A stretch of 45,809 bases of DNA. It comes from a phage. The stretch is from assembly GCA_024854585.1 (NCBI GenBank), contig GCA_024854585.1_4323.1. The stretch is one strand, 5' to 3'. Below are positions 2,941 through 35,398 of this stretch, piece by piece (the stretch's first letter is position 1; each line of letters opens with the position of its first letter). The notes beneath the pieces are model-generated. The model was not told where the DNA came from. It made no database searches and was given only the letters and a program-made list of their open reading frames with translations. The position numbers and the translations under genes were made by a program.

Positions 2941-3204
2941 AGTTTATCACACGGCTTTTAATTACTCGAATTTTACTTCGAACTTGATTGTGTCGCACTT
3001 TACGCCATCCCGATCAAGCGCATATACAGTACGACCCACATTTCCGAACTCAATCACGTCAACCTCATGTCCGTTTATGTAATATCTTAGATATGGTTTT
3101 TTATTATTGTCAGTGGCTTTGGCTGCGCATTCGCTTTCAGTTAAGAAACCCTCGCCCTCTTCGCGGATATCAAACTTGTGGAATTCTCCGTTTTTTATGT
3201 AACG

Positions 3205-3393
3205 TTAACCATCATGATCATCTACGCACCAAAAATAGTTTTCATCATCAGTATCAAAACGGTTAACCCTATATTTCTTACCCACTGTGAATCCACAGTC
3301 TTCATTATCAATGTTACCAAGATATAATGCCTTTGAATAAATTGTAGTCATTTGTTTATCCCCTCTCGTTTCGATGAAGTAACTATACGCCAT
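3205..3393 (-). CDS. Small hypothetical protein; reading frame continues open for about 80 codons past its TAA stop (to about 2965)
   Basis: ORF track; likely true start at internal ATG (about 3351, MTTIYSK) after GAGAGGGG RBS; in-frame extension read directly from sequence. Confidence 0.45.
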   Translation of the reverse strand: MAYSYFIETRGDKQMTTIYSKALYLGNIDNEDCGFTVGKKYRVNRFDTDDENYFWCVDDHDG

Positions 3394-7433: not shown

Positions 7434-7454
7434 TTTAGCAATTCGTGCTATTTA
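7434..7454 (-). promoter_or_regulatory. Palindromic promoter/operator motif copy
   Basis: tttagcaattcgtgctattta; 20 nt then TATAGT; 56-nt leader to ATG 7377. Confidence 0.6.
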
Positions 7455-8097: not shown

Positions 8098-8116
8098 TTT
8101 AGCAATTCGTGCTATT
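8098..8116 (-). promoter_or_regulatory. Palindromic promoter/operator motif copy
   Basis: tttagcaattcgtgctatt upstream of 7851..8072. Confidence 0.55.
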
Positions 8117-8906: not shown

Positions 8907-8925
8907 TTTTAACAAAAAGTGCTAT
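8907..8925 (-). promoter_or_regulatory. Variant motif copy (ttttaacaaaaagtgctat)
   Basis: Conserved ATAGCAC half-site, degenerate second half; upstream of 8618..8842. Confidence 0.45.
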
Positions 8926-9212
8926 CGTTCATCTTCTCTGGAGCATCCCTTGCCGCAACCATGGCGACCAACTTCCACGATCCCGACACCGCTTAAGCCT
9001 ATGTATTCCTGACCAGTGTCCTTATCGGTGATGACGTATATCGCTCTGACGTTCTCATATGCCAGTTCATCCCTGAACTCCTGAATCTTCACAACCTGGA
9101 CGCGATCGTTTACGTTCACTAGCATCTTCTGCCGAGCCTCTGAATCTACCCGGGTGCTTCCAAAATCACACCCAGCCAGCGCCAGTGCCGCTAATAAAAT
9201 TAGTTTCTTCAT
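8922..9212 (-). CDS. Putative lipoprotein
   Basis: N-terminal MKKLILLAALALAGC: signal peptide with lipobox LAGC. Confidence 0.6.
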   Translation of the reverse strand: MKKLILLAALALAGCDFGSTRVDSEARQKMLVNVNDRVQVVKIQEFRDELAYENVRAIYVITDKDTGQEYIGLSGVGIVEVGRHGCGKGCSREDER

Positions 9213-9879: not shown

Positions 9880-9900
9880 TTTAGCAATTCGTGCTATTTA
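9880..9900 (-). promoter_or_regulatory. Palindromic promoter/operator motif copy
   Basis: tttagcaattcgtgctattta; overlaps stop of 9894..10418. Confidence 0.6.
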
Positions 9901-10960: not shown

Positions 10961-11235
10961 ATATCACCTCGTTGTTGCATACTGCGTTTCATTGATTGGT
11001 ATATTGCATCAGATTTACGCGTTAGTCAAAGTATTTCTTTGTATATTTTTCACCTAATACGCAAATCTGCCTCTAGCGCCGCATCATCTCTATATGTATA
11101 TTGCGCGTACGCCGTGTATACACTTTTTTACCCACCAGGCCCCATGCATGCCTATCCATTCCTACAATGTCATCCCCTTCCTACAAGCGTCAGAATATCT
11201 GCGCGGAACATATCAATTATCCCATCAATTATCGG

Positions 11236-11305
11236 TATACACAGTATACATATATATAATAATAATAATAATAATAAAGTAAAAGGTTGATATATATAGG
11301 TATTA
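11236..11305 (+). repeat. Copy 1 of about 65-bp AT-rich repeat (tatacacagta...ataataataataataa agtaaaaggttgatatatatag)
   Basis: Near-identical block at about 29674-29736. Confidence 0.7.
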
Positions 11306-11587
11306 TATTGTATATCGCGTGTATATCTCGCGTAAAAACGTAGGTTAGTGGTCGCTAACTTTTGTGACGACACTGAGTATACTTAGGATACGCGTATATC
11401 TGTGAGGTGCTCATCGAGTGGTAAAATCAACTTGTATGGTAGTCCATCCATCTTTCATTCACCCACTCACCACTTCATTTCACTCTTCGCAACAATCAAA
11501 AACATCATTGCACCTGAAGCAATATTGCTGTACGTGCAATAATCATGTTAATCATTGCAATATCTGCAATAATCCATAAATCTGACG

Positions 11588-11607
11588 AATAGCACTTTTT
11601 GCTAAAG
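11588..11607 (+). promoter_or_regulatory. Motif copy in + gene orientation (aatagcactttttgctaaag)
   Basis: Followed by TATAGT-like hexamer and GAGGAGAGA RBS before ATG 11661. Confidence 0.5.
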
Positions 11608-12099: not shown

Positions 12100-12260
12100 T
12101 GCTATTACCTTCAGATTTGAGCTATTGGGATTTTGAGGTTGTGTCAATAATGTCTGGAAAGGGCTGGCCTTGCGGTGATTGGTTCCGCGAAGACTTGCTT
12201 GAGAGTCATGAGATTATGCTCAAGGCCATAGAAAAAGCACGAAATATCACTAATTGCTAA
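12099..12260 (+). CDS. Small hypothetical protein (below ORF-track cutoff)
   Basis: ATG overlapping previous stop (GTGATG); about 53 codons; read from sequence. Confidence 0.3.
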   Translation: MLLPSDLSYWDFEVVSIMSGKGWPCGDWFREDLLESHEIMLKAIEKARNITNC

Positions 12261-12262
12261 AG
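12242..12262 (+). promoter_or_regulatory. Motif copy in + orientation (aaatatcactaattgctaaag) followed by hairpin agcccttcggggct
   Basis: Read from sequence. Confidence 0.45.
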
Positions 12263-15169: not shown

Positions 15170-15194
15170 ATAGCCTCCATTAGGAGGCTTTTTT
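15170..15194. terminator. Bidirectional terminator hairpin (atagcctccattaggaggctttttt)
   Basis: Between convergent genes 14830..15165 (+) and 15180..15569 (-). Confidence 0.6.
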
Positions 15195-15569
15195 ACGTCT
15201 TAAGATTACAGTCAGGAGAATTAAAACAAGAAGACCCATAGCTCCCGTTCCAATCCAAGGAAGTGCGGATGAGTCGTTATTGGTAATTTCAATCTTTTCG
15301 GCAGTAATTGTTGAGGCCTTAATCGAGTTGTCAGTAGTCTTTTTCCCGCTCGAACTATCCAGTGATCCTACGCTTGAATCCTTAACGGTGGCATCGCTGG
15401 AGTTACTGGAATCGACCTTATTCGCCAACCCAACTCCAACCTTGTTATTCTCGGCACCAGCCTGCGCACTAATTTCCGGCTTACTGCCAATTAATCCGGT
15501 CAGAGCAGATGTTGCTGAACATCCAGACAGAGCTACGCACATCACTAACGATGCAATCCACTTAAGCAT
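15180..15569 (-). CDS. Unimolecular spanin-like lysis protein (lipoprotein N-terminus plus C-terminal transmembrane helix)
   Basis: N-terminal signal with lipobox LSGCSA; Ser/Thr-rich linker; C-terminal hydrophobic segment AMGLLVLILLTVIL followed by RRKK; last gene of lysis cassette. Confidence 0.55.
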   Translation of the reverse strand: MLKWIASLVMCVALSGCSATSALTGLIGSKPEISAQAGAENNKVGVGLANKVDSSNSSDATVKDSSVGSLDSSSGKKTTDNSIKASTITAEKIEITNNDSSALPWIGTGAMGLLVLILLTVILRRKKAS

Positions 15570-19529: not shown

Positions 19530-19548
19530 TTTAGCAATTCGTGCTATT
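19530..19548 (-). promoter_or_regulatory. Palindromic promoter/operator motif copy
   Basis: tttagcaattcgtgctatt between 19551..19757 and 19273..19515. Confidence 0.55.
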
Positions 19549-19820: not shown

Positions 19821-19841
19821 TTTAGCAATTCGTGCTATTTA
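19821..19841 (-). promoter_or_regulatory. Palindromic promoter/operator motif copy
   Basis: tttagcaattcgtgctattta overlapping stop of 19835..20254; TATAGT hexamer and GAAACGAAACACATAGAGAG leader follow. Confidence 0.6.
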
Positions 19842-22346: not shown

Positions 22347-22829
22347 ATGAATGCAGTTGACAAGCGAACCACTAACGGTAATAACGGAACTATCCGCACT
22401 GAAGACAAAAAACAACGTAAACGACCTTCAGGCTACTACGTTTTAAAAGATGAAGTAAGAGCCGGGCTACGCGCGCGGCTTGAGATGCTCCTTGATTTCT
22501 TCGTCACAAAGGCGAATATTGCAAAGCAGTTAAAGGTAACTCCGCAGGCTGTAGAAGAATGGTTTAAGCGTGGTATGATTTCTGCGCGCGGTGCTCAACT
22601 GTCGCACAACTACTACAAACGAAACGGAGAGGGTTTTCGTGCTACATTCTGCCGACCAGACCTGCAATTTGACGGTAACGGCAAGCCACTGACACTCCGG
22701 TGCAAAAAGCGTCACATGCTACGCGTGGTTACTGAGGCTGAGTTAGCCACCAAGCCAGAGTGTCGATCATGGCGCAAGATTAAGGCCGCTAACGAGGCAG
22801 CACGAAAAGCTAAAGAGCAAGGGAAATAG
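22347..22829 (+). CDS. Putative HTH DNA-binding protein
   Basis: 160 aa; KANIAKQLKVTPQAVEEWFKRGMIS resembles Cro/YdaS-type HTH; basic termini. Confidence 0.45.
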   Translation: MNAVDKRTTNGNNGTIRTEDKKQRKRPSGYYVLKDEVRAGLRARLEMLLDFFVTKANIAKQLKVTPQAVEEWFKRGMISARGAQLSHNYYKRNGEGFRATFCRPDLQFDGNGKPLTLRCKKRHMLRVVTEAELATKPECRSWRKIKAANEAARKAKEQGK

Positions 22830-22843
22830 CACGAATTGATAAA
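22824..22843 (+). promoter_or_regulatory. Motif copy in + orientation (aaatagcacgaattgataaa)
   Basis: Contains stop of 22347..22829; 20 nt then TATAGT; GGAGGT RBS before primase ATG. Confidence 0.55.
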
Positions 22844-23866: not shown

Positions 23867-23888
23867 CTTAGCAATTCGTGCTATTTTA
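23867..23888 (-). promoter_or_regulatory. Motif copy in minus-gene orientation with no minus-strand gene to drive (module-boundary remnant?)
   Basis: cttagcaattcgtgctatttta sits 20 nt upstream of tailspike ATG. Confidence 0.4.
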
Positions 23889-28185: not shown

Positions 28186-28205
28186 TTTAGCAATTCGTGC
28201 TATAT
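28186..28205 (-). promoter_or_regulatory. Palindromic promoter/operator motif copy
   Basis: tttagcaattcgtgctatat overlapping exonuclease stop; TATGAT hexamer and AACGAACGAGG leader before the Erf-like gene ATG. Confidence 0.55.
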
Positions 28206-29171: not shown

Positions 29172-29366
29172 CTATTCCTTAACCTTAACTACTTTAACAG
29201 ATTTCATATCTTCCTCAGTAAAGTACCCGGTCAGCACATCCCGGGCTTCTTCTTTAGTCTCGAATCTGTCTGCTTCGCTCTTATCTGTTGTGTACCCAGC
29301 TGGGCCGCCAAAGTAGCAGTCTCCGAACAGTGCATTGTTTTTCTCTTTGATAATGTAGTAGGTCAT
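29172..29366 (-). CDS. Hypothetical small protein
   Basis: 64 aa ORF directly upstream of exonuclease. Confidence 0.45.
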   Translation of the reverse strand: MTYYIIKEKNNALFGDCYFGGPAGYTTDKSEADRFETKEEARDVLTGYFTEEDMKSVKVVKVKE

Positions 29367-29673
29367 TTCTGCATCTCTCTATGGTTGATTGCTTTCGATT
29401 AGTTAACTATATAGTCAGCGCCATAGCCAGTCCAATTGGTTTTGCCAATCGTTGATTTAAGTTTACGTGTGAATGCTTGTAATTCCGTGTAGGCATTGCC
29501 ACTTGTTACGTAAAATGGCATCTCAGCCCAGATATAGCTCAATGTAACCATCGTGTATATCGTGTATACCGTTTCTTGCAGAGGGGTGAATTGGTATAGC
29601 TGCCACGCAATACTGTATAAATCCACATGATATTAAAATTATAACCGGAACACTCTATGGAAGTAGTTACATG

Positions 29674-29736
29674 ATATACACAGTAATATATATAATAATA
29701 ATAATAAGAGTAAAAGGTTGATATATATAGATATTT
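29674..29736 (+). repeat. Copy 2 of about 65-bp AT-rich repeat
   Basis: atatacacagtaatatatataataataataataagagtaaaaggttgatatatatag. Confidence 0.7.
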
Positions 29737-29854
29737 TAATGTAACTAATGCGTAAATTGGCGTAACAGCGCGTATATCATTTTTCGCGGATGAGATTGCA
29801 TACATCGAGTTACATCGGTTACGTGTAACTGTGATTTGTGGTGAATTTGGAGAT

Positions 29855-29875
29855 AAATAGCACGATTTGCTAAAG
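29855..29875 (+). promoter_or_regulatory. Motif copy in + orientation (aaatagcacgatttgctaaag)
   Basis: Upstream of 29981..30652. Confidence 0.5.
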
Positions 29876-29980
29876 ACAACTAGCTATCTTTGGGTATATT
29901 TAGGCGCATGGCGGCAATGGTGCTGCTTGGTCTACCGAAAATCGGCAGACCAAAACCAAACGATGGCTAAAATCTGAGAC

Positions 29981-30652
29981 ATGAAAAACATAAGAGAGAC
30001 TAAAATGAACATTGAAGCGTACAAAGAACAGCCAAAAACCATGATGAGCACGAAGGAAATTGCTGAATTGACAGGTAAGCGTCATGATCACGTCGTTCGC
30101 GACACAAAGGAAATGATCAATGAATTGTTACATTATAACTATGCCCCAGATTTGGGTCATGATGATTATCAAGTACTTACGGACAATCGCGGCTATACAT
30201 CTGAGGTTTTACTCAACAAGGAACTCACCGAAACGCTAATCACTGGCTACAGTGTCGTACTTCGCCACAAAGTAATCCGCAGGCTTCATGAGCTTGAGGT
30301 GTTAGTTAAAAAACAAGCAGAAGTGATCAGCCAGATGGTAAGCATTGATGAGTTAAAAGAGGCGCGCATGATGCTTGGTGTGGCTAATGCTCAGAATGCA
30401 CACCTGAGCCAGCGCATTGTTGCAGAGCAAAGAATAAATGAGATTTTACTCATGGATAAGAATACCGATGAAAAACTCGACATGTTGGCTTGTGAGGCTC
30501 GCCAGTGTTGGGTTAGTCGTTCTGATGAGATGGAGGAAAGATTTAAGTATGAATCGCAATGCTTCGCGCTTAAAGAAAAGACGGATGCACTTACCGGATT
30601 AATTGAGAATGAGCTAGGTATTGACATTAAGCTGTTGCTCGAAAAGAAATAG
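29981..30652 (+). CDS. Rha-like phage regulatory protein (possible true start at 30005)
   Basis: N-terminal STKEIAELTGKRHDHVVRD pattern typical of Rha-family regulators; coiled-coil C-terminus. Confidence 0.45.
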   Translation: MKNIRETKMNIEAYKEQPKTMMSTKEIAELTGKRHDHVVRDTKEMINELLHYNYAPDLGHDDYQVLTDNRGYTSEVLLNKELTETLITGYSVVLRHKVIRRLHELEVLVKKQAEVISQMVSIDELKEARMMLGVANAQNAHLSQRIVAEQRINEILLMDKNTDEKLDMLACEARQCWVSRSDEMEERFKYESQCFALKEKTDALTGLIENELGIDIKLLLEKK

Positions 30653-30667
30653 CACTAATTGCTAAAC
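30647..30667 (+). promoter_or_regulatory. Motif copy in + orientation (aaatagcactaattgctaaac)
   Basis: Contains stop of 29981..30652; upstream of lipoprotein gene. Confidence 0.5.
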
Positions 30668-30733
30668 ACTGTTCGCAAGGATGCGATACTATTACCACAT
30701 CGAAACGAAACTTACTTACTAAGGAATACTAAA

Positions 30734-30979
30734 ATGACTAACTTAATCAAATCAGCAATCATCGCAGCAGCAGTAATCATGGCAGTTGGTTGCTCTTCAG
30801 GTCCTCGTCCGGATGGTTGGTGTGCAACTCAAGCAAATGGTGTGTGCGTAGCTAAATGGAAGGGTGGTGTAGTTGTTCCGGCTGGCGAGGTTGATATTCG
30901 CTACGCTGGCATTGAAAGCAAAGCTGGCGGCGGTTACGGAGGTTCTGTTGCAGATCATGGCAGCAAGGAGTGGAAATAA
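30734..30979 (+). CDS. Small lipoprotein, possibly Cor-like superinfection-exclusion protein (track ORF starts 30659)
   Basis: [22 protein letters not shown]: signal peptide with lipobox; about 81 aa; placed next to tail fibre genes. Confidence 0.45.
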
Positions 30980-31941
30980 TGCCGCAGGGTATATTGATTG
31001 ACCTCAATGACGGAAGACCAGCGATGGAAATAACGGCAGGATTAAGGGCGCCTGCTGTGACTGGTTCAATAAATACCAATGGACTTTCAACCCCAGCAAG
31101 TTCGTGGGATTTTGGATTAACAATGTCTCCTGGCTCTACGGCTTTCTGCCTGCCAACGAAGGCAGTCCACGTTGATGCTTACGATGTTATACCTGAAGTT
31201 TATTACATGAACGGATTCCAAAAGGTTAATGACGGAGTTGGCAGGATAACACTCAGTAACTTCAATGGTGCCAATGGTCGAATAATTGACTTTGCGGGTA
31301 ATTGTTTTGAAATTCTACCAGCATCATCTTCATCAAGCCCAGGGATACTCGTTGAGAACTCAACTGATTTCCTTGCTATATCAAGCAACTCGAGACTAAT
31401 GTCAGCAGCATGGGTTGGAGGCATACAGGTTAACGGGGCGGCATCGCTACCAGTTAGCGGAATACCATTCGGCAAGTGGGATAATCCAAACGTATCACTT
31501 GAATCAGATGGATCAACAATATGGTGTAGGGATATAACCTACGGAGGTACAGATGATGTTGCGGCAAGTACTTATGTTCAGCTGGTGATATTCAGAAATG
31601 AACCACCACCAGCCGGACCAGGACTAACAATGTCGAATAGTTCTGGTCAGATTGTTTTTTCAAGTGTTCGCCGCCCATTTGTTCTTGGTGGATTCATTCA
31701 GATCAATAATGGATACCAGTCAATAAATGGTGGATTCTTTCCGCTGCTTAGATGCGGCGCTACGACTAGAGTTACTGGAGGTTATAACAACTTAAGGTAC
31801 AAAGGGGTCTGCATGTCTGGAGGCTCTGTTAGGGCTGTTCCTGGCTCTGTAATTGGTAACTACTCGACGCAATCAGGCGCTCAGTTTCCTTTCGACACGA
31901 ACATATCAATGGCACTTCCATTTATCCCAAACTTCTACTAA
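30979..31941 (+). CDS. Putative tail fibre / receptor-binding accessory protein
   Basis: 320 aa, Gly/Ser/Asn-rich, beta-rich composition; located between lipoprotein and J-like gene; start coupled to upstream stop. Confidence 0.35.
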   Translation: MPQGILIDLNDGRPAMEITAGLRAPAVTGSINTNGLSTPASSWDFGLTMSPGSTAFCLPTKAVHVDAYDVIPEVYYMNGFQKVNDGVGRITLSNFNGANGRIIDFAGNCFEILPASSSSSPGILVENSTDFLAISSNSRLMSAAWVGGIQVNGAASLPVSGIPFGKWDNPNVSLESDGSTIWCRDITYGGTDDVAASTYVQLVIFRNEPPPAGPGLTMSNSSGQIVFSSVRRPFVLGGFIQINNGYQSINGGFFPLLRCGATTRVTGGYNNLRYKGVCMSGGSVRAVPGSVIGNYSTQSGAQFPFDTNISMALPFIPNFY

Positions 31942-31945
31942 AAGA

Positions 31946-31968
31946 AAAGCCCCAATTAAGGGGCTTTA
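31946..31968. terminator. Bidirectional terminator aaaagccccaattaaggggcttt
   Basis: Between convergent 30979..31941 (+) and J-like gene (-). Confidence 0.6.
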
Positions 31969-31972
31969 TTTA

Positions 31973-34900
31973 TTACCACACTCCAACTACCACTCTTCCT
32001 CCGTTAGGTAAGTTTACAGTGATTCCGTTATTGTTAATCTGAACCGTGTTATTGGTTCCGTTAAATGCGAAGTTACCATTATTGGCATACAGTTTACCCC
32101 TTACAGTGGCGTTACTAAATTCCGCACTTCCTGACTTGTCAATCGCCCATCCTTGAGAGCCAGCAACGTAGTTGTTAGATTGAATCCTGTTACCAATCTT
32201 CGCGTTAGTAATTGAGCCATCGCCAATTACCGCACTTTGGATGATTACGTTTCCGTTCTCGACAACGAAGGGGAGCTGCCACTGACCGGATCCAGAACCA
32301 ATGCCGTTACTGATTGCGAATCTGTTTGCGTCAAAAATAAACTGACTGCGAACGTTTCCACCAGTGCCAACTAGCTCCATACTCATGCCGGATGAGTAAT
32401 TCTGTCCGTTATATTTAAGACCTAAACTGATTCCGTATTGCACGCCAGTAGATGTCGCATTGGAGAATGCGTCTAACTTCTGGTTTATGGCCGCCTCGTT
32501 ATCACCCAATCTTGCTGATAGAGCCGTGTCTGCAGTGGTCCTTGCTTCTGTCTCGGTGGCTAGCGCTGTCTGAACTTCTGTAATCGATGCTACAACTTCA
32601 TCATCTATCTGCGCTTTAAGAGCTGTGAGAGCCTCTACTCGCGCCTGAGTTTCATCAGCTATGAGATTCACTGCCTGAACATATTCAGCCTTACGTTTGC
32701 CGTTCTCCTTGGTCATGCGGCGAACATCGGAATCATTAGCTAATGCATTCTCAAGAATTGACTCTGCCTGATTCTGAATGTCCTGATTCTTTTGAATCGC
32801 ATTCTGCTCTAGGTATTTAAAACCCTCCGAGCCTTCAATATCAACCTTGATATAATCGTTGATGATGTTGGCGTCGTCAGTACTCATACCTCTAGCGAAA
32901 TAAGACCAATCAGAGGTATTGCCGATTCTGTCAATCAATCTTGCGCGATACCAGATGACCTTACCCGGCTGAATTGGCGTGTGCCAGTATTCATAGGCTG
33001 GATAAGGCAGTAACGTCAGCAAACTTGCGTTATCAGGATTGTAAGTACCATCACCATTATCTGGAACCTGCTGAAGTTCAGTGTAAGCAGTATCACCAGA
33101 TCCTTCAGGAAATCCCCATTTAACACGGATGCCAAATACCTCATCAGTTGATGCAGTGATAACTGTAGGCGCAGATGGGCGGCCAATCTTACCAGTTAGC
33201 GATACAGTTACAATATCAGACCAGGCAGACACGTTTTCAGTATCTGATACGCTGCGAACCCTAACGTCATAGATTCCTGCGTAAATACCTTCGATATCAA
33301 CTTCTGTGCTTGCTGTTCTGGGTACGTTAATCCAGTTACCATTTTCTTTTCTCCATTGAACATTGTATGTTTTAGCGTATGGCGCTTTATCCCACCCGAT
33401 AACCATCGTCTCAACTGATAACCCCTGAACAACCTTACTATAACTTGAAACGGTCAGGTTTTCTGGTGGCGACAATCTGTCAGGTTCCACAATTGAAGTC
33501 GGGCGGTCAGCAATGTTAACGCCGTAGTCAATCTCGTCATACTTGTTAGGGTCGTACTCTACCGCAGTAATCGTATACTGGAATGAGTCCTTACCATCAG
33601 TATCTGCTTTTTGAATACCGGTAACAACATACTGCTGAAGTGCCAGATTATCCTTATCAATTGCGAACACAGTATCAGGTTGAGCTACAAAGCTAAAAGC
33701 AGTATTCAGGTTGATGGTTCTACCATCTTCCGAAATGCTGGCAATAGTTCTCGCTTCAGGATTTCCGTCAGGCTTATTCAGAAGAATCCTGTCACCCGGA
33801 GCTGCGTCAACTTTAAATGGGGTAAAAACCTGCAACCCCTGAACTGATTCAATACGACCTGAAAGGTTTAACTGATAGTTGCTCGACCATGCAGCATCAT
33901 TGACCGCAATCACCTCGCCAATCATCGGAATCATGCCCTCCAACCCAGTGGTGAAGCTGATAGTTTCGCTTCTCAGGTTGGTTTTCAGGAGCCATCTGCC
34001 GCGTCTGTTTGCTTCACTTCTCCGCGTACATCCAATTGCCGTAAGGTCGACTGGATTAAATCCGAATCTGCGAGTAGCTTCCAGTTCAAATACCGGCTCA
34101 ACATCCTGCTGATAGTTGTTCTCCACATCATCAAACTGAACGTTTGCCGTGGTGTAAAGGCTTTTATCACTGGCGAAGGTTCGACTGAACAATCCGTTTA
34201 CAACGTTATCATTGGTGAAGATGTAGGATGGATTACGAGGCTTATCAACTACGATACCAATCTTTTCGCCATCATAGAAAGTCAGGCCACGGAAGATCGA
34301 ACAGATATCACGAATTAGCGTGTAAGCCTCAACTTTATTCTGCACAACCATATCGCACAGGTAGCGCGGCTCCACGCCGCCTTTTCCATCTGGAACCATT
34401 TGGTCACAGAATTGCGCAGCTTCGTACAGACCCCACTTATCAATCTCCACACCCAGATCTCTCTGATCAAGACCGTAGCGGCGGTTTGTCACTAAGTCAT
34501 AAAGAACCCACGCAGGGTTATTTGACCATGCCATTTTAAATAGACCATTCCATGTGCCACTATAAGTTCTGCTTTCAGGGTCATAGTTTGTAGGAACCTG
34601 AATCAACTTCCATCGCTTCTTGATAGAGATTGTCGGGATACCGTTAGGAAAAAGGTCAGAGCCAAACTCAACGTAAACAAGAGCTGTAAGCGGATAGCGG
34701 AATTTAGCGTCAATTACTTCCTGATAGGTTGTAATCTGCATCCCGTTAACCAGGGTGCTACTTGTTGAATCTGGTGTAATCTTGCGGATGCGAACCAGTG
34801 CGCTATCAAATTCAGCCGGAAGGTTCACGCGAATGCTTCGGTCGTAACCTGTAGTGGTCTTCCCGTTTGCAACTCCGCGAGTGTATTCCTGATATGATCC

Positions 34901-35398
34901 ACCATTAACAGACAGGTCAATCGCGTACTCGCAAGTAGTTCCGTTCAGATCTCCATTGCTTTCTTGCTTAACTAGTCGAGGCCAGAATAGCTTAACTCGA
35001 ATCGCTGAAAGCTGAGTATTGTTAACCGCAATGATGTACGGGGTATTGTTCGTGATTTCTCTGGATGCCTGAATCTCTGAGTTAGCACCATCAAGGCCAG
35101 CGATATAGTCCTGATACTGCGTGCCGGCACGGAACTCAGCGCGAACACCTTCGTAGTTGTAGCTACCATCCTGGTTTTGCACAGGAACATCAGCAAGGTA
35201 TAAATCCTTCATTGAGAAATTTGGGTCAACCTCACCATCAGCAACCGCCAAAAGAACCTTAACCTTGTTAAGTGAAATTAGGTTATCTTCCTGTTCCACT
35301 GGTTGATGCTGCTTCTGGCTACCGCCTTTAGCACCATAAATCTTAATCTCTTCAGCCATATCACAAAGCCTCATGTTTGTTTTGATCATTTGTGCCAT
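31973..35398 (-). CDS. Central tail fibre / tail tip host-specificity protein (lambda J-like)
   Basis: 1141 aa; last and largest gene of tail module after I-like gene. Confidence 0.75.
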   Translation of the reverse strand: MAQMIKTNMRLCDMAEEIKIYGAKGGSQKQHQPVEQEDNLISLNKVKVLLAVADGEVDPNFSMKDLYLADVPVQNQDGSYNYEGVRAEFRAGTQYQDYIAGLDGANSEIQASREITNNTPYIIAVNNTQLSAIRVKLFWPRLVKQESNGDLNGTTCEYAIDLSVNGGSYQEYTRGVANGKTTTGYDRSIRVNLPAEFDSALVRIRKITPDSTSSTLVNGMQITTYQEVIDAKFRYPLTALVYVEFGSDLFPNGIPTISIKKRWKLIQVPTNYDPESRTYSGTWNGLFKMAWSNNPAWVLYDLVTNRRYGLDQRDLGVEIDKWGLYEAAQFCDQMVPDGKGGVEPRYLCDMVVQNKVEAYTLIRDICSIFRGLTFYDGEKIGIVVDKPRNPSYIFTNDNVVNGLFSRTFASDKSLYTTANVQFDDVENNYQQDVEPVFELEATRRFGFNPVDLTAIGCTRRSEANRRGRWLLKTNLRSETISFTTGLEGMIPMIGEVIAVNDAAWSSNYQLNLSGRIESVQGLQVFTPFKVDAAPGDRILLNKPDGNPEARTIASISEDGRTINLNTAFSFVAQPDTVFAIDKDNLALQQYVVTGIQKADTDGKDSFQYTITAVEYDPNKYDEIDYGVNIADRPTSIVEPDRLSPPENLTVSSYSKVVQGLSVETMVIGWDKAPYAKTYNVQWRKENGNWINVPRTASTEVDIEGIYAGIYDVRVRSVSDTENVSAWSDIVTVSLTGKIGRPSAPTVITASTDEVFGIRVKWGFPEGSGDTAYTELQQVPDNGDGTYNPDNASLLTLLPYPAYEYWHTPIQPGKVIWYRARLIDRIGNTSDWSYFARGMSTDDANIINDYIKVDIEGSEGFKYLEQNAIQKNQDIQNQAESILENALANDSDVRRMTKENGKRKAEYVQAVNLIADETQARVEALTALKAQIDDEVVASITEVQTALATETEARTTADTALSARLGDNEAAINQKLDAFSNATSTGVQYGISLGLKYNGQNYSSGMSMELVGTGGNVRSQFIFDANRFAISNGIGSGSGQWQLPFVVENGNVIIQSAVIGDGSITNAKIGNRIQSNNYVAGSQGWAIDKSGSAEFSNATVRGKLYANNGNFAFNGTNNTVQINNNGITVNLPNGGRVVVGVW

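Follow-up and report, generated by a model that had tools for sequence, protein, structure and literature searches.

The window analysed here (45,809 nucleotides of contig GCA_024854585.1_4323.1) is that of a T1-like coliphage of the Drexlerviridae. Its small lipoprotein gene, located directly upstream of the gene for a receptor-binding protein (RBP), probably encodes a factor that excludes LptD-dependent phages by the mechanism described for the lipoprotein Rtp45 of Escherichia phage Rtp. We infer exclusion in vivo, and put the probability of this reading at about 0.88. The best matches of the window were to T1-like coliphages (Drexlerviridae and relatives), with 80-95% identity over the locus; over the first 25 kb it was about 86%. 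The finding as such is not new: a complex of the orthologue has been solved, the type of locus is on record, and no concept is added to those of Maffei 2021 and Dunbar 2025. What the analysis supports is a correction of the earlier interpretation, in that the receptor would be LptD and not FhuA, the family PF24052/Rtp45, and the predicted mechanism steric rather than allosteric. This settles the annotation of three features of the window, with an LptD-directed exclusion lipoprotein, an LptD-binding RBP as its neighbour and LptD as the predicted terminal receptor.

The positions of the features of the locus are given in Table 1. The lipoprotein gene runs from an ATG at 30734 to a TAA at 30977-30979, which corresponds to 81 codons plus the stop; the preliminary description, made from the sequence alone, had placed a product of about 81 residues at 30734-30979, and these coordinates were exact when start and stop were read from the sequence. 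A mechanical list of open reading frames gives a longer, TTG-started ORF from 30659, and the ATG was retained as the real start because all homologues of the lipoprotein begin with MTNLIK. The precursor matches the PROSITE lipoprotein pattern PS00013, with K6 within the first seven residues, an uncharged h-region and a cysteine at position 20; this lysine is the only one in the n-region. The lipobox AVGC proposed earlier was recovered by this prediction despite the alanine at position -3, which is off the strict [LVI] consensus (usually Leu, Val or Ile). Among the relatives, position -3 varies between A, T, M, I and S, while G19 and C20 are invariant in the 27 aligned sequences. The codon of Cys20, the residue predicted to be acylated and to become residue 1 of the mature protein, lies at 30791-30793. 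As there are only three credible lipobox ORFs in the whole 45.8-kb window, the lipobox of this product is not a chance pattern. In E. coli, the residue that follows the lipobox cysteine (position +2) sets the sorting of lipoproteins by the Lol system, and the serine found there in the window lipoprotein therefore predicts sorting to the outer membrane. Asp at +2 is absent from all its aligned or listed relatives.

Table 1. Features of the lipoprotein locus and copies of the promoter motif, in window positions.
Feature	Position	Strand	Basis or remark
Rha/anti-repressor-like gene	29981..30652	+	Pfam and PHROGs matches
Inverted-repeat promoter/operator motif ATAGCACTAATTGCTAAA (TAGCA-N5-TGCTA)	30649..30666	+	one of 13 copies
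Copies of the motif ATAGCACGAATTGCTAAA	3408-3425, 7434-7451, 8098-8115, 9880-9897, 11589-11606, 12244-12261, 19530-19547, 19821-19838, 22826-22843, 23867-23884, 28186-28203, 29857-29874, 30649-30666
-10-like TACTAT (30687-30692), then conserved leader TACCACATCGAAACGAAAC	30687..30711	+	aligned in register
Ribosome-binding site AAGGA, 8 nt before ATG	30721..30725	+	read directly
Predicted superinfection-exclusion lipoprotein gene, 81 aa, Rtp45 orthologue (PF24052)	30734..30979	+	profile, PDB and homologue matches
Signal peptide, residues 1-19, ending in lipobox A17-V18-G19-C20	30734..30793	+	PS00013 match
Cys30 (30821-30823) and Cys38 (30845-30847)	30821..30847	+	invariant; disulfide pair in Rtp45 (PMC12685063)
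Gly-rich five-residue insertion S62-K-A-G-G66 relative to Rtp45	30917..30931	+	alignments
LptD-type RBP, DUF6453, 320 aa	30979..31941	+	PF20051, 464.8 bits
Intrinsic terminator, bidirectional, ending both the lipoprotein-RBP operon and the J gene that converges on it	31946..31967	.
Lambda-J-like central tail tip protein, 1141 aa, carries the RBP	31973..35398	-	PF24801, PF09327, PF13550, phrog_31

Profile and structure searches point to a single family for the product. It matches Pfam PF24052 ("Phage_lipoprotein") with 131.5 bits (curated cut-off, 27 bits; E = 1.1e-38), residues 1-80 falling on profile positions 1-80, and phrog_4281 with E = 3.8e-36. The best and only real match in the PDB is 9rps_D, 'Phage lipoprotein' (E = 9.6e-36); chain D of 9RPS is Rtp45 of Escherichia phage Rtp (UniProt Q333D9). 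Compared with the rtp45 product of the Rtp genome, 62 of 81 positions are identical (77%), the differences being 14 substitutions at aligned positions and a single 5-residue indel, and this identity fixes the fold of the window lipoprotein. The insertion at residues 62-66 marks the 80/81-aa length class of the family. Like the window lipoprotein, Rtp45 has a signal peptide, the lipobox cysteine Cys20, the Cys30-Cys38 pair and the conserved hairpin segment; residues 30-35 read CATQAN in the window and CATQAS in Rtp45. Across 27 aligned sequences (63-96% identity), no variation occurs at G19, C20, C30, C38, K41, W42, G51, E52, D54 or R56, and the hairpin segment K41-W42...G51-E52-x-D54-x-R56 is likewise conserved. 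On this evidence the window lipoprotein is an orthologue of Rtp45.

All 53 close homologues belong to PF24052. An exhaustive profile search of 1.84 billion cluster representatives returned 17 matches, 15 of which are genuine clusters; the two others, P0065 and P0070, were rejected as repeat artefacts. A lipobox, the two cysteines and a hairpin motif resembling GE(I/V)D-x-R(Y/F) were found in every one of the 15 distant clusters, the motif being a variant in a few. PF24052 is, judging from these searches, a small and phage-restricted family. The SE lipoprotein of phage Oekolampad (bas18_0026) and those of other Dhillonvirus/Queuovirinae members belong to it as well, and the logic of their locus is that of the window, with the lipoprotein and an LptD-type RBP downstream of gpJ. 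The Dhillonvirus members are about 31-41% identical to the window lipoprotein and thus far more divergent from it than Rtp45. According to PMC12685063, the Oekolampad protein is 35% identical to Rtp45 and could not be expressed, so that it has no structure. Public records label the orthologues inconsistently, as hypothetical protein, lipoprotein, Cor or tail tip protein.

The gene next to the lipoprotein gene identifies the likely receptor. The preliminary description had set the lipoprotein just upstream of a putative fibre gene and beside a J-like gene. This position was confirmed, the former gene lying on the same strand and the J-like gene on the opposite strand, convergent with the lipoprotein-RBP pair. 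The neighbour, however, is no fibre but a globular RBP (DUF6453) carried on the J tip. It is homologous to the Oekolampad RBP that was solved on LptDE (9rpt_C, E = 1.8e-66) and 97.8% identical to gene 038 of phage OzMSK, which is unable to infect two lptD loop-deletion strains (PMC13035648). The locus type, consisting of an RBP and its cognate exclusion protein downstream of gpJ, was defined by Maffei et al. 2021, and one allele of it was tied to LptD (PMC8594841). The rtp45 locus is arranged as in the window, upstream of an LptD-type RBP gene and convergent with gpJ, but Rtp44 shares only 39% identity with the window RBP, which is of the OzMSK/ACG-M12 subtype. The phage is predicted to use the essential protein LptD as its terminal receptor. 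On the other side of the lipoprotein gene, this virulent phage carries a Rha-like gene (29981-30652, +) that has its own copy of the promoter motif. The same slot is occupied by a DNA methylase gene in OzMSK and by nothing in other relatives, and it is a variable insertion point beside the host-recognition cassette.

The way in which the lipoprotein would block LptD is provided by the complex of its orthologue. As described by Dunbar et al. 2025 (PNAS; PMC12685063), cryo-EM of Rtp45 with Shigella flexneri LptDE and LptM showed that Rtp45 binds closed LptDE at the periplasmic membrane interface, between LptE and LptM, with a Rtp45-LptD interface of about 1,000 square angstroms. Residues 30-35, bracketed by the Cys30-Cys38 disulfide, pair as an added strand with LptD 318-323, and a long hairpin runs up the LptD lumen. 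Extracellular loop 4 of LptD is shifted by as much as 20 angstroms and kept there, a position incompatible with binding of the RBP. The mechanism is thus steric, in contrast to the long-range allostery exerted by T5 Llp on FhuA. The paper also reports that the lipid anchor of Rtp45 was unresolved in the map and that neither Rtp45 nor its complex was modelled correctly by AF3, as judged against the experimental structure.

Since the window lipoprotein keeps all of these named elements of Rtp45, we infer the same mechanism for it. The precursor would be exported, acylated at Cys20 and then cleaved by signal peptidase II, and Lol would sort it to the inner leaflet of the outer membrane because its +2 residue is Ser. 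The mature lipoprotein is expected to dock on the periplasmic side of LptDE, between LptE and LptM, where its residues 30-35 would add a beta-strand to LptD and its long hairpin would extend up the lumen. The hairpin would force extracellular loop 4 outward and keep it there, and the phage's own RBP, the product of the next gene, would no longer be able to bind LptD. Infected cells and debris would thus cease to adsorb the progeny as well as competing LptD-dependent phages. The proposal of the preliminary description that the lipoprotein inactivates its phage's own outer-membrane receptor is supported by the 77% identity to the orthologue Rtp45, by the solved Rtp45-LptDE complex (PMC12685063) and by the adjacent LptD-type RBP. 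In the sections of the same paper that were covered, exclusion by Rtp45 is deduced from the structure and the spot assays used resistant lptD mutants only; a plating or adsorption assay with Rtp45-expressing cells was found neither there nor in the further literature searched.

As the Drexlerviridae are virulent, the likely benefit to the phage is that its progeny are spared adsorption to cells already infected and to debris. Protection of progeny from adsorbing to debris was reportedly proposed for Rtp45 in 2006, in the original Rtp genome paper. The progeny-protection view has also been stated for Cor and Llp (PMC11990801). Against the preferred reading count the 14 substitutions and the Gly-rich insertion relative to Rtp45, the alanine at lipobox position -3, and the operon shared with the RBP gene, which does not point to early expression as an exclusion factor would lead one to expect.

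The promoter of this operon belongs to a series. At up to three mismatches, the 18-mer ATAGCACGAATTGCTAAA is found in 13 copies in the whole window, against 0.09 expected by chance, which bears out the earlier suggestion that the lipoprotein gene has its own motif-type promoter. Every copy lies upstream of a gene and in one common register; a TATAGT-like -10 follows after about 22 nt, and then come the leader TACyyCATCGAAACGA, a ribosome-binding site and ATG. The lipoprotein copy shares bases with the stop codon of the Rha-like gene that precedes it, and its TACTAT and leader (TACCACATCGAAACGA) are in register with the GTATAGTTACyyCATCGAAACGA of the other copies. Another candidate for the repeated element, TGCGATACTAT, was not enriched (10 matches versus 12.8 expected), and the inverted-repeat motif was preferred. 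A generic sigma-70 scan of 29300-32300 returned no site in the 30653-30733 gap; it misses the lipoprotein promoter because the spacing between TTGCTA and the -10, 22 nt, is unusual. The centre of the inverted repeat precedes the inferred start site by about 42 nt, a position that would be that of a class II activator site. The repeat therefore looks like a phage-regulator site overlapping the -35 and not like a plain sigma-70 promoter. In the original Rtp genome paper (2006), conserved inverted repeats upstream of genes are said to be sites for a putative regulator, Rtp52.

At its other end, the lipoprotein gene overlaps the start of the next gene by one base (TAATG at 30977-30981). This translational coupling to the RBP gene would suit an accessory or assembly factor of the RBP, or a tail-tip component, instead of an exclusion factor, and one record indeed names the orthologue 'putative tail tip protein'. 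Such a role has little chance of being the right one: the export and lipidation signals would remove the protein from the cytoplasm, where tails are assembled, Rtp45 co-purifies with LptDE and was seen bound to it (PMC12685063), and a preprint accepts Rtp45 as an exclusion factor.

The preferred reading, exclusion at LptD, places the lipoprotein next to two known systems. Cor (T1, phi80, N15, HK022; phrog_1119) is likewise a small outer-membrane lipoprotein encoded beside the J/RBP locus, and it is reported to block its phage's own receptor. Its target is FhuA, whereas the receptor of the window lipoprotein would be LptD; T1 cor is transcribed alone and opposite to the RBP genes, whereas the window lipoprotein gene is in an operon with the RBP gene; and the T1 locus (L019) carries other genes, ST32 and ST31, instead of a DUF6453 RBP gene. 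That the product might be a true Cor-family lipoprotein of the T1/phi80/N15 type, blocking FhuA, is suggested by its agreement with T1 cor in size and in location next to the J locus, by one public record that annotates the orthologue as 'Cor superinfection exclusion protein', and by a sub-threshold match of T1 Cor to PF24052 (17.7 bits versus the cut-off of 27 bits). A PHROGs scan of the window lipoprotein, however, returned phrog_4281 only and did not match phrog_1119, hhalign aligned it with T1 Cor over 23 signal-peptide and lipobox columns only, and BLASTP against T1 Cor reached the signal peptide only (residues 8-45, with a large gap). The partner RBP, moreover, is of the LptD type and is not the T1 FhuA module. 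With no homology in the mature part by any of these three methods and no FhuA-specific module beside the gene, membership of the Cor family was rejected, and FhuA blocking by a Cor of this type is highly improbable.

The second system is Llp of T5 (PDB 8A60, with FhuA). Like Rtp45, Llp faces the periplasm, binds its receptor from the inside and alters extracellular loops, which prevents binding of the RBP. The two differ in that Llp acts on the TonB-dependent transporter FhuA by long-range 'reverse' allostery, whereas Rtp45 physically displaces LptD loop 4. The T5 llp gene adjoins the RBP gene, as in the window, but is divergently transcribed from its own promoter. Membership of the Llp family (T5, BF23) was rejected, since hhalign against T5 Llp (L022) gave a probability of 21% that was dominated by the signal peptide. 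The term 'Cor-like' used in the preliminary description holds as a functional analogy but not by sequence, the likeness to T1 Cor and T5 Llp being confined to the signal peptide and lipobox. By this comparison the window lipoprotein would work like Cor and Llp while belonging to neither family.

Related loci were compared with the window to see how the lipoprotein and the RBP are associated. The lipoprotein alignment supplied sixteen of them, from IMG/VR, and two came from phage records with a match to the region. In 17 of these 18 loci, all of which were chosen for similarity to the lipoprotein gene or the region, the lipoprotein gene is directly followed by a DUF6453 RBP gene and a convergent J gene. 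Lipoprotein identity across loci L001-L017 is 74-96% in most and about 60-68% in one. The identities of the RBPs to that of the window form three groups, of at least 90%, of 64-78% and of about 39%; in Rtp itself (L013), the lipoprotein has 77% identity and the RBP 39%. The identity of J varies independently of both, and the length class of the lipoprotein (76 aa or 80/81 aa) is loosely linked to the RBP subtype. These identities indicate that the two genes of the cassette, lipoprotein and RBP, evolve at very different rates. The pattern fits a mobile cassette in which the inner-face binder would be more tightly constrained than the loop-binding RBP.

The same contrast, 74-96% identity for the lipoprotein versus down to 39% for the partner RBP, could also be taken to mean that the main role of the protein is interference with LptDE, with throttled lipopolysaccharide export and a changed envelope, receptor masking being a side effect. 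The Rtp45 hairpin does fill the LptD lumen, the path of the lipopolysaccharide, and displaces part of LptM (PMC12685063), and the family is present in podoviruses without a DUF6453 RBP. The near-constant pairing with an LptD-type RBP is nevertheless what receptor masking predicts. In the same source, Rtp45 expressed well when it was overexpressed together with LptDE in growing E. coli, and the literature searched shows no effect on lipopolysaccharide export or outer-membrane integrity. A main role in LptDE interference is accordingly considered very unlikely.

The podovirus members just mentioned are PF24052 lipoproteins of the 67-78-kb Gordonclarkvirinae, Kuravirus and relatives (tblastn matches H48, H49, H53, H58 and H60-H62). 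One of them, Bas87_0096 of Escherichia phage AnnaHegner_Bas87 (PQ850594.1; 3926-4252 in locus L023), matches PF24052 with 122.6 bits and has the lipobox LTGC. Their genes have small early genes as neighbours, and neither a DUF6453 RBP gene nor a J gene is close by. Gordonclarkvirinae podoviruses are described as O-antigen-dependent, the LPS core being probably the terminal receptor, and Kuravirus and LptD appear together, in the literature searched, only in the BASEL-completion paper and in unrelated sections of it. These podoviruses may use LptD, or may exclude LptD-dependent competitors. A further distant member (3001-3279 in locus L018, IMGVR_UViG_3300045988_135422) is encoded on a 31-kb viral contig; it has 92 residues and a PF24052 score of 82 bits. 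It has no adjacent DUF6453 RBP or J gene, and four neighbouring proteins are without a Pfam match.

Because the lipoprotein is far better conserved than the RBPs, because the orthologue sits inside the LptD lumen and because the podovirus members lack such an RBP, the protein could act as a 'plug' of LptD in general, with cross-exclusion of every LptD-dependent phage and perhaps a throttling of lipopolysaccharide export in the infected cell as well. This broader role is unlikely; if it were true, the presence of the family could flag LptD as an unrecognised receptor or competition point for podoviruses. Under exclusion of LptD-dependent phages by the Rtp45 mechanism, two consequences for the design of phage cocktails can be drawn: phages with the lipoprotein-RBP cassette should exclude one another, and resistance to cassette-bearing phages should map to the lptD loops.

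The two other lipobox ORFs of the window encode proteins of a different kind. The second lipoprotein of the preliminary description (8922..9212) is a real lipobox ORF, though one of the minus strand. With the sequence MKKLILLAALALAGC|DFGS and the lipobox LAGC|D, it matches phrog_16585, a family of unknown function. The Asp at +2 is a Lol-avoidance signal; inner-membrane retention is therefore predicted, and the blocking of an outer-membrane receptor is unlikely. As a Cor relative it was rejected, its phrog_1119 match being weak and at the level of the signal peptide only and BLASTP against T1 Cor being non-significant.

The third, absent from the preliminary description, is a 129-aa Rz-like spanin (15180..15569, minus strand; MLKWIASLVMCVALSGC|S) that matches phrog_1804 with E = 9e-49. 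The product of 30734..30979 is itself a small outer-membrane lipoprotein of a virulent phage and could on that ground be a lysis lipoprotein, the outer-membrane component of a spanin. Since the window already has this Rz-like spanin, and since the product is without a spanin family match and its gene lies at the host-recognition locus, a lysis function has a negligible probability.

An AT-rich block, TACACAGTATACATATATATAATAATAATAA... AGTAAAAGGTTGATATATATAG, is present in two copies about 18.4 kb apart, at 11229-11312 and 29668-29743. One of them falls within the divergent gap that precedes the Rha-like gene.
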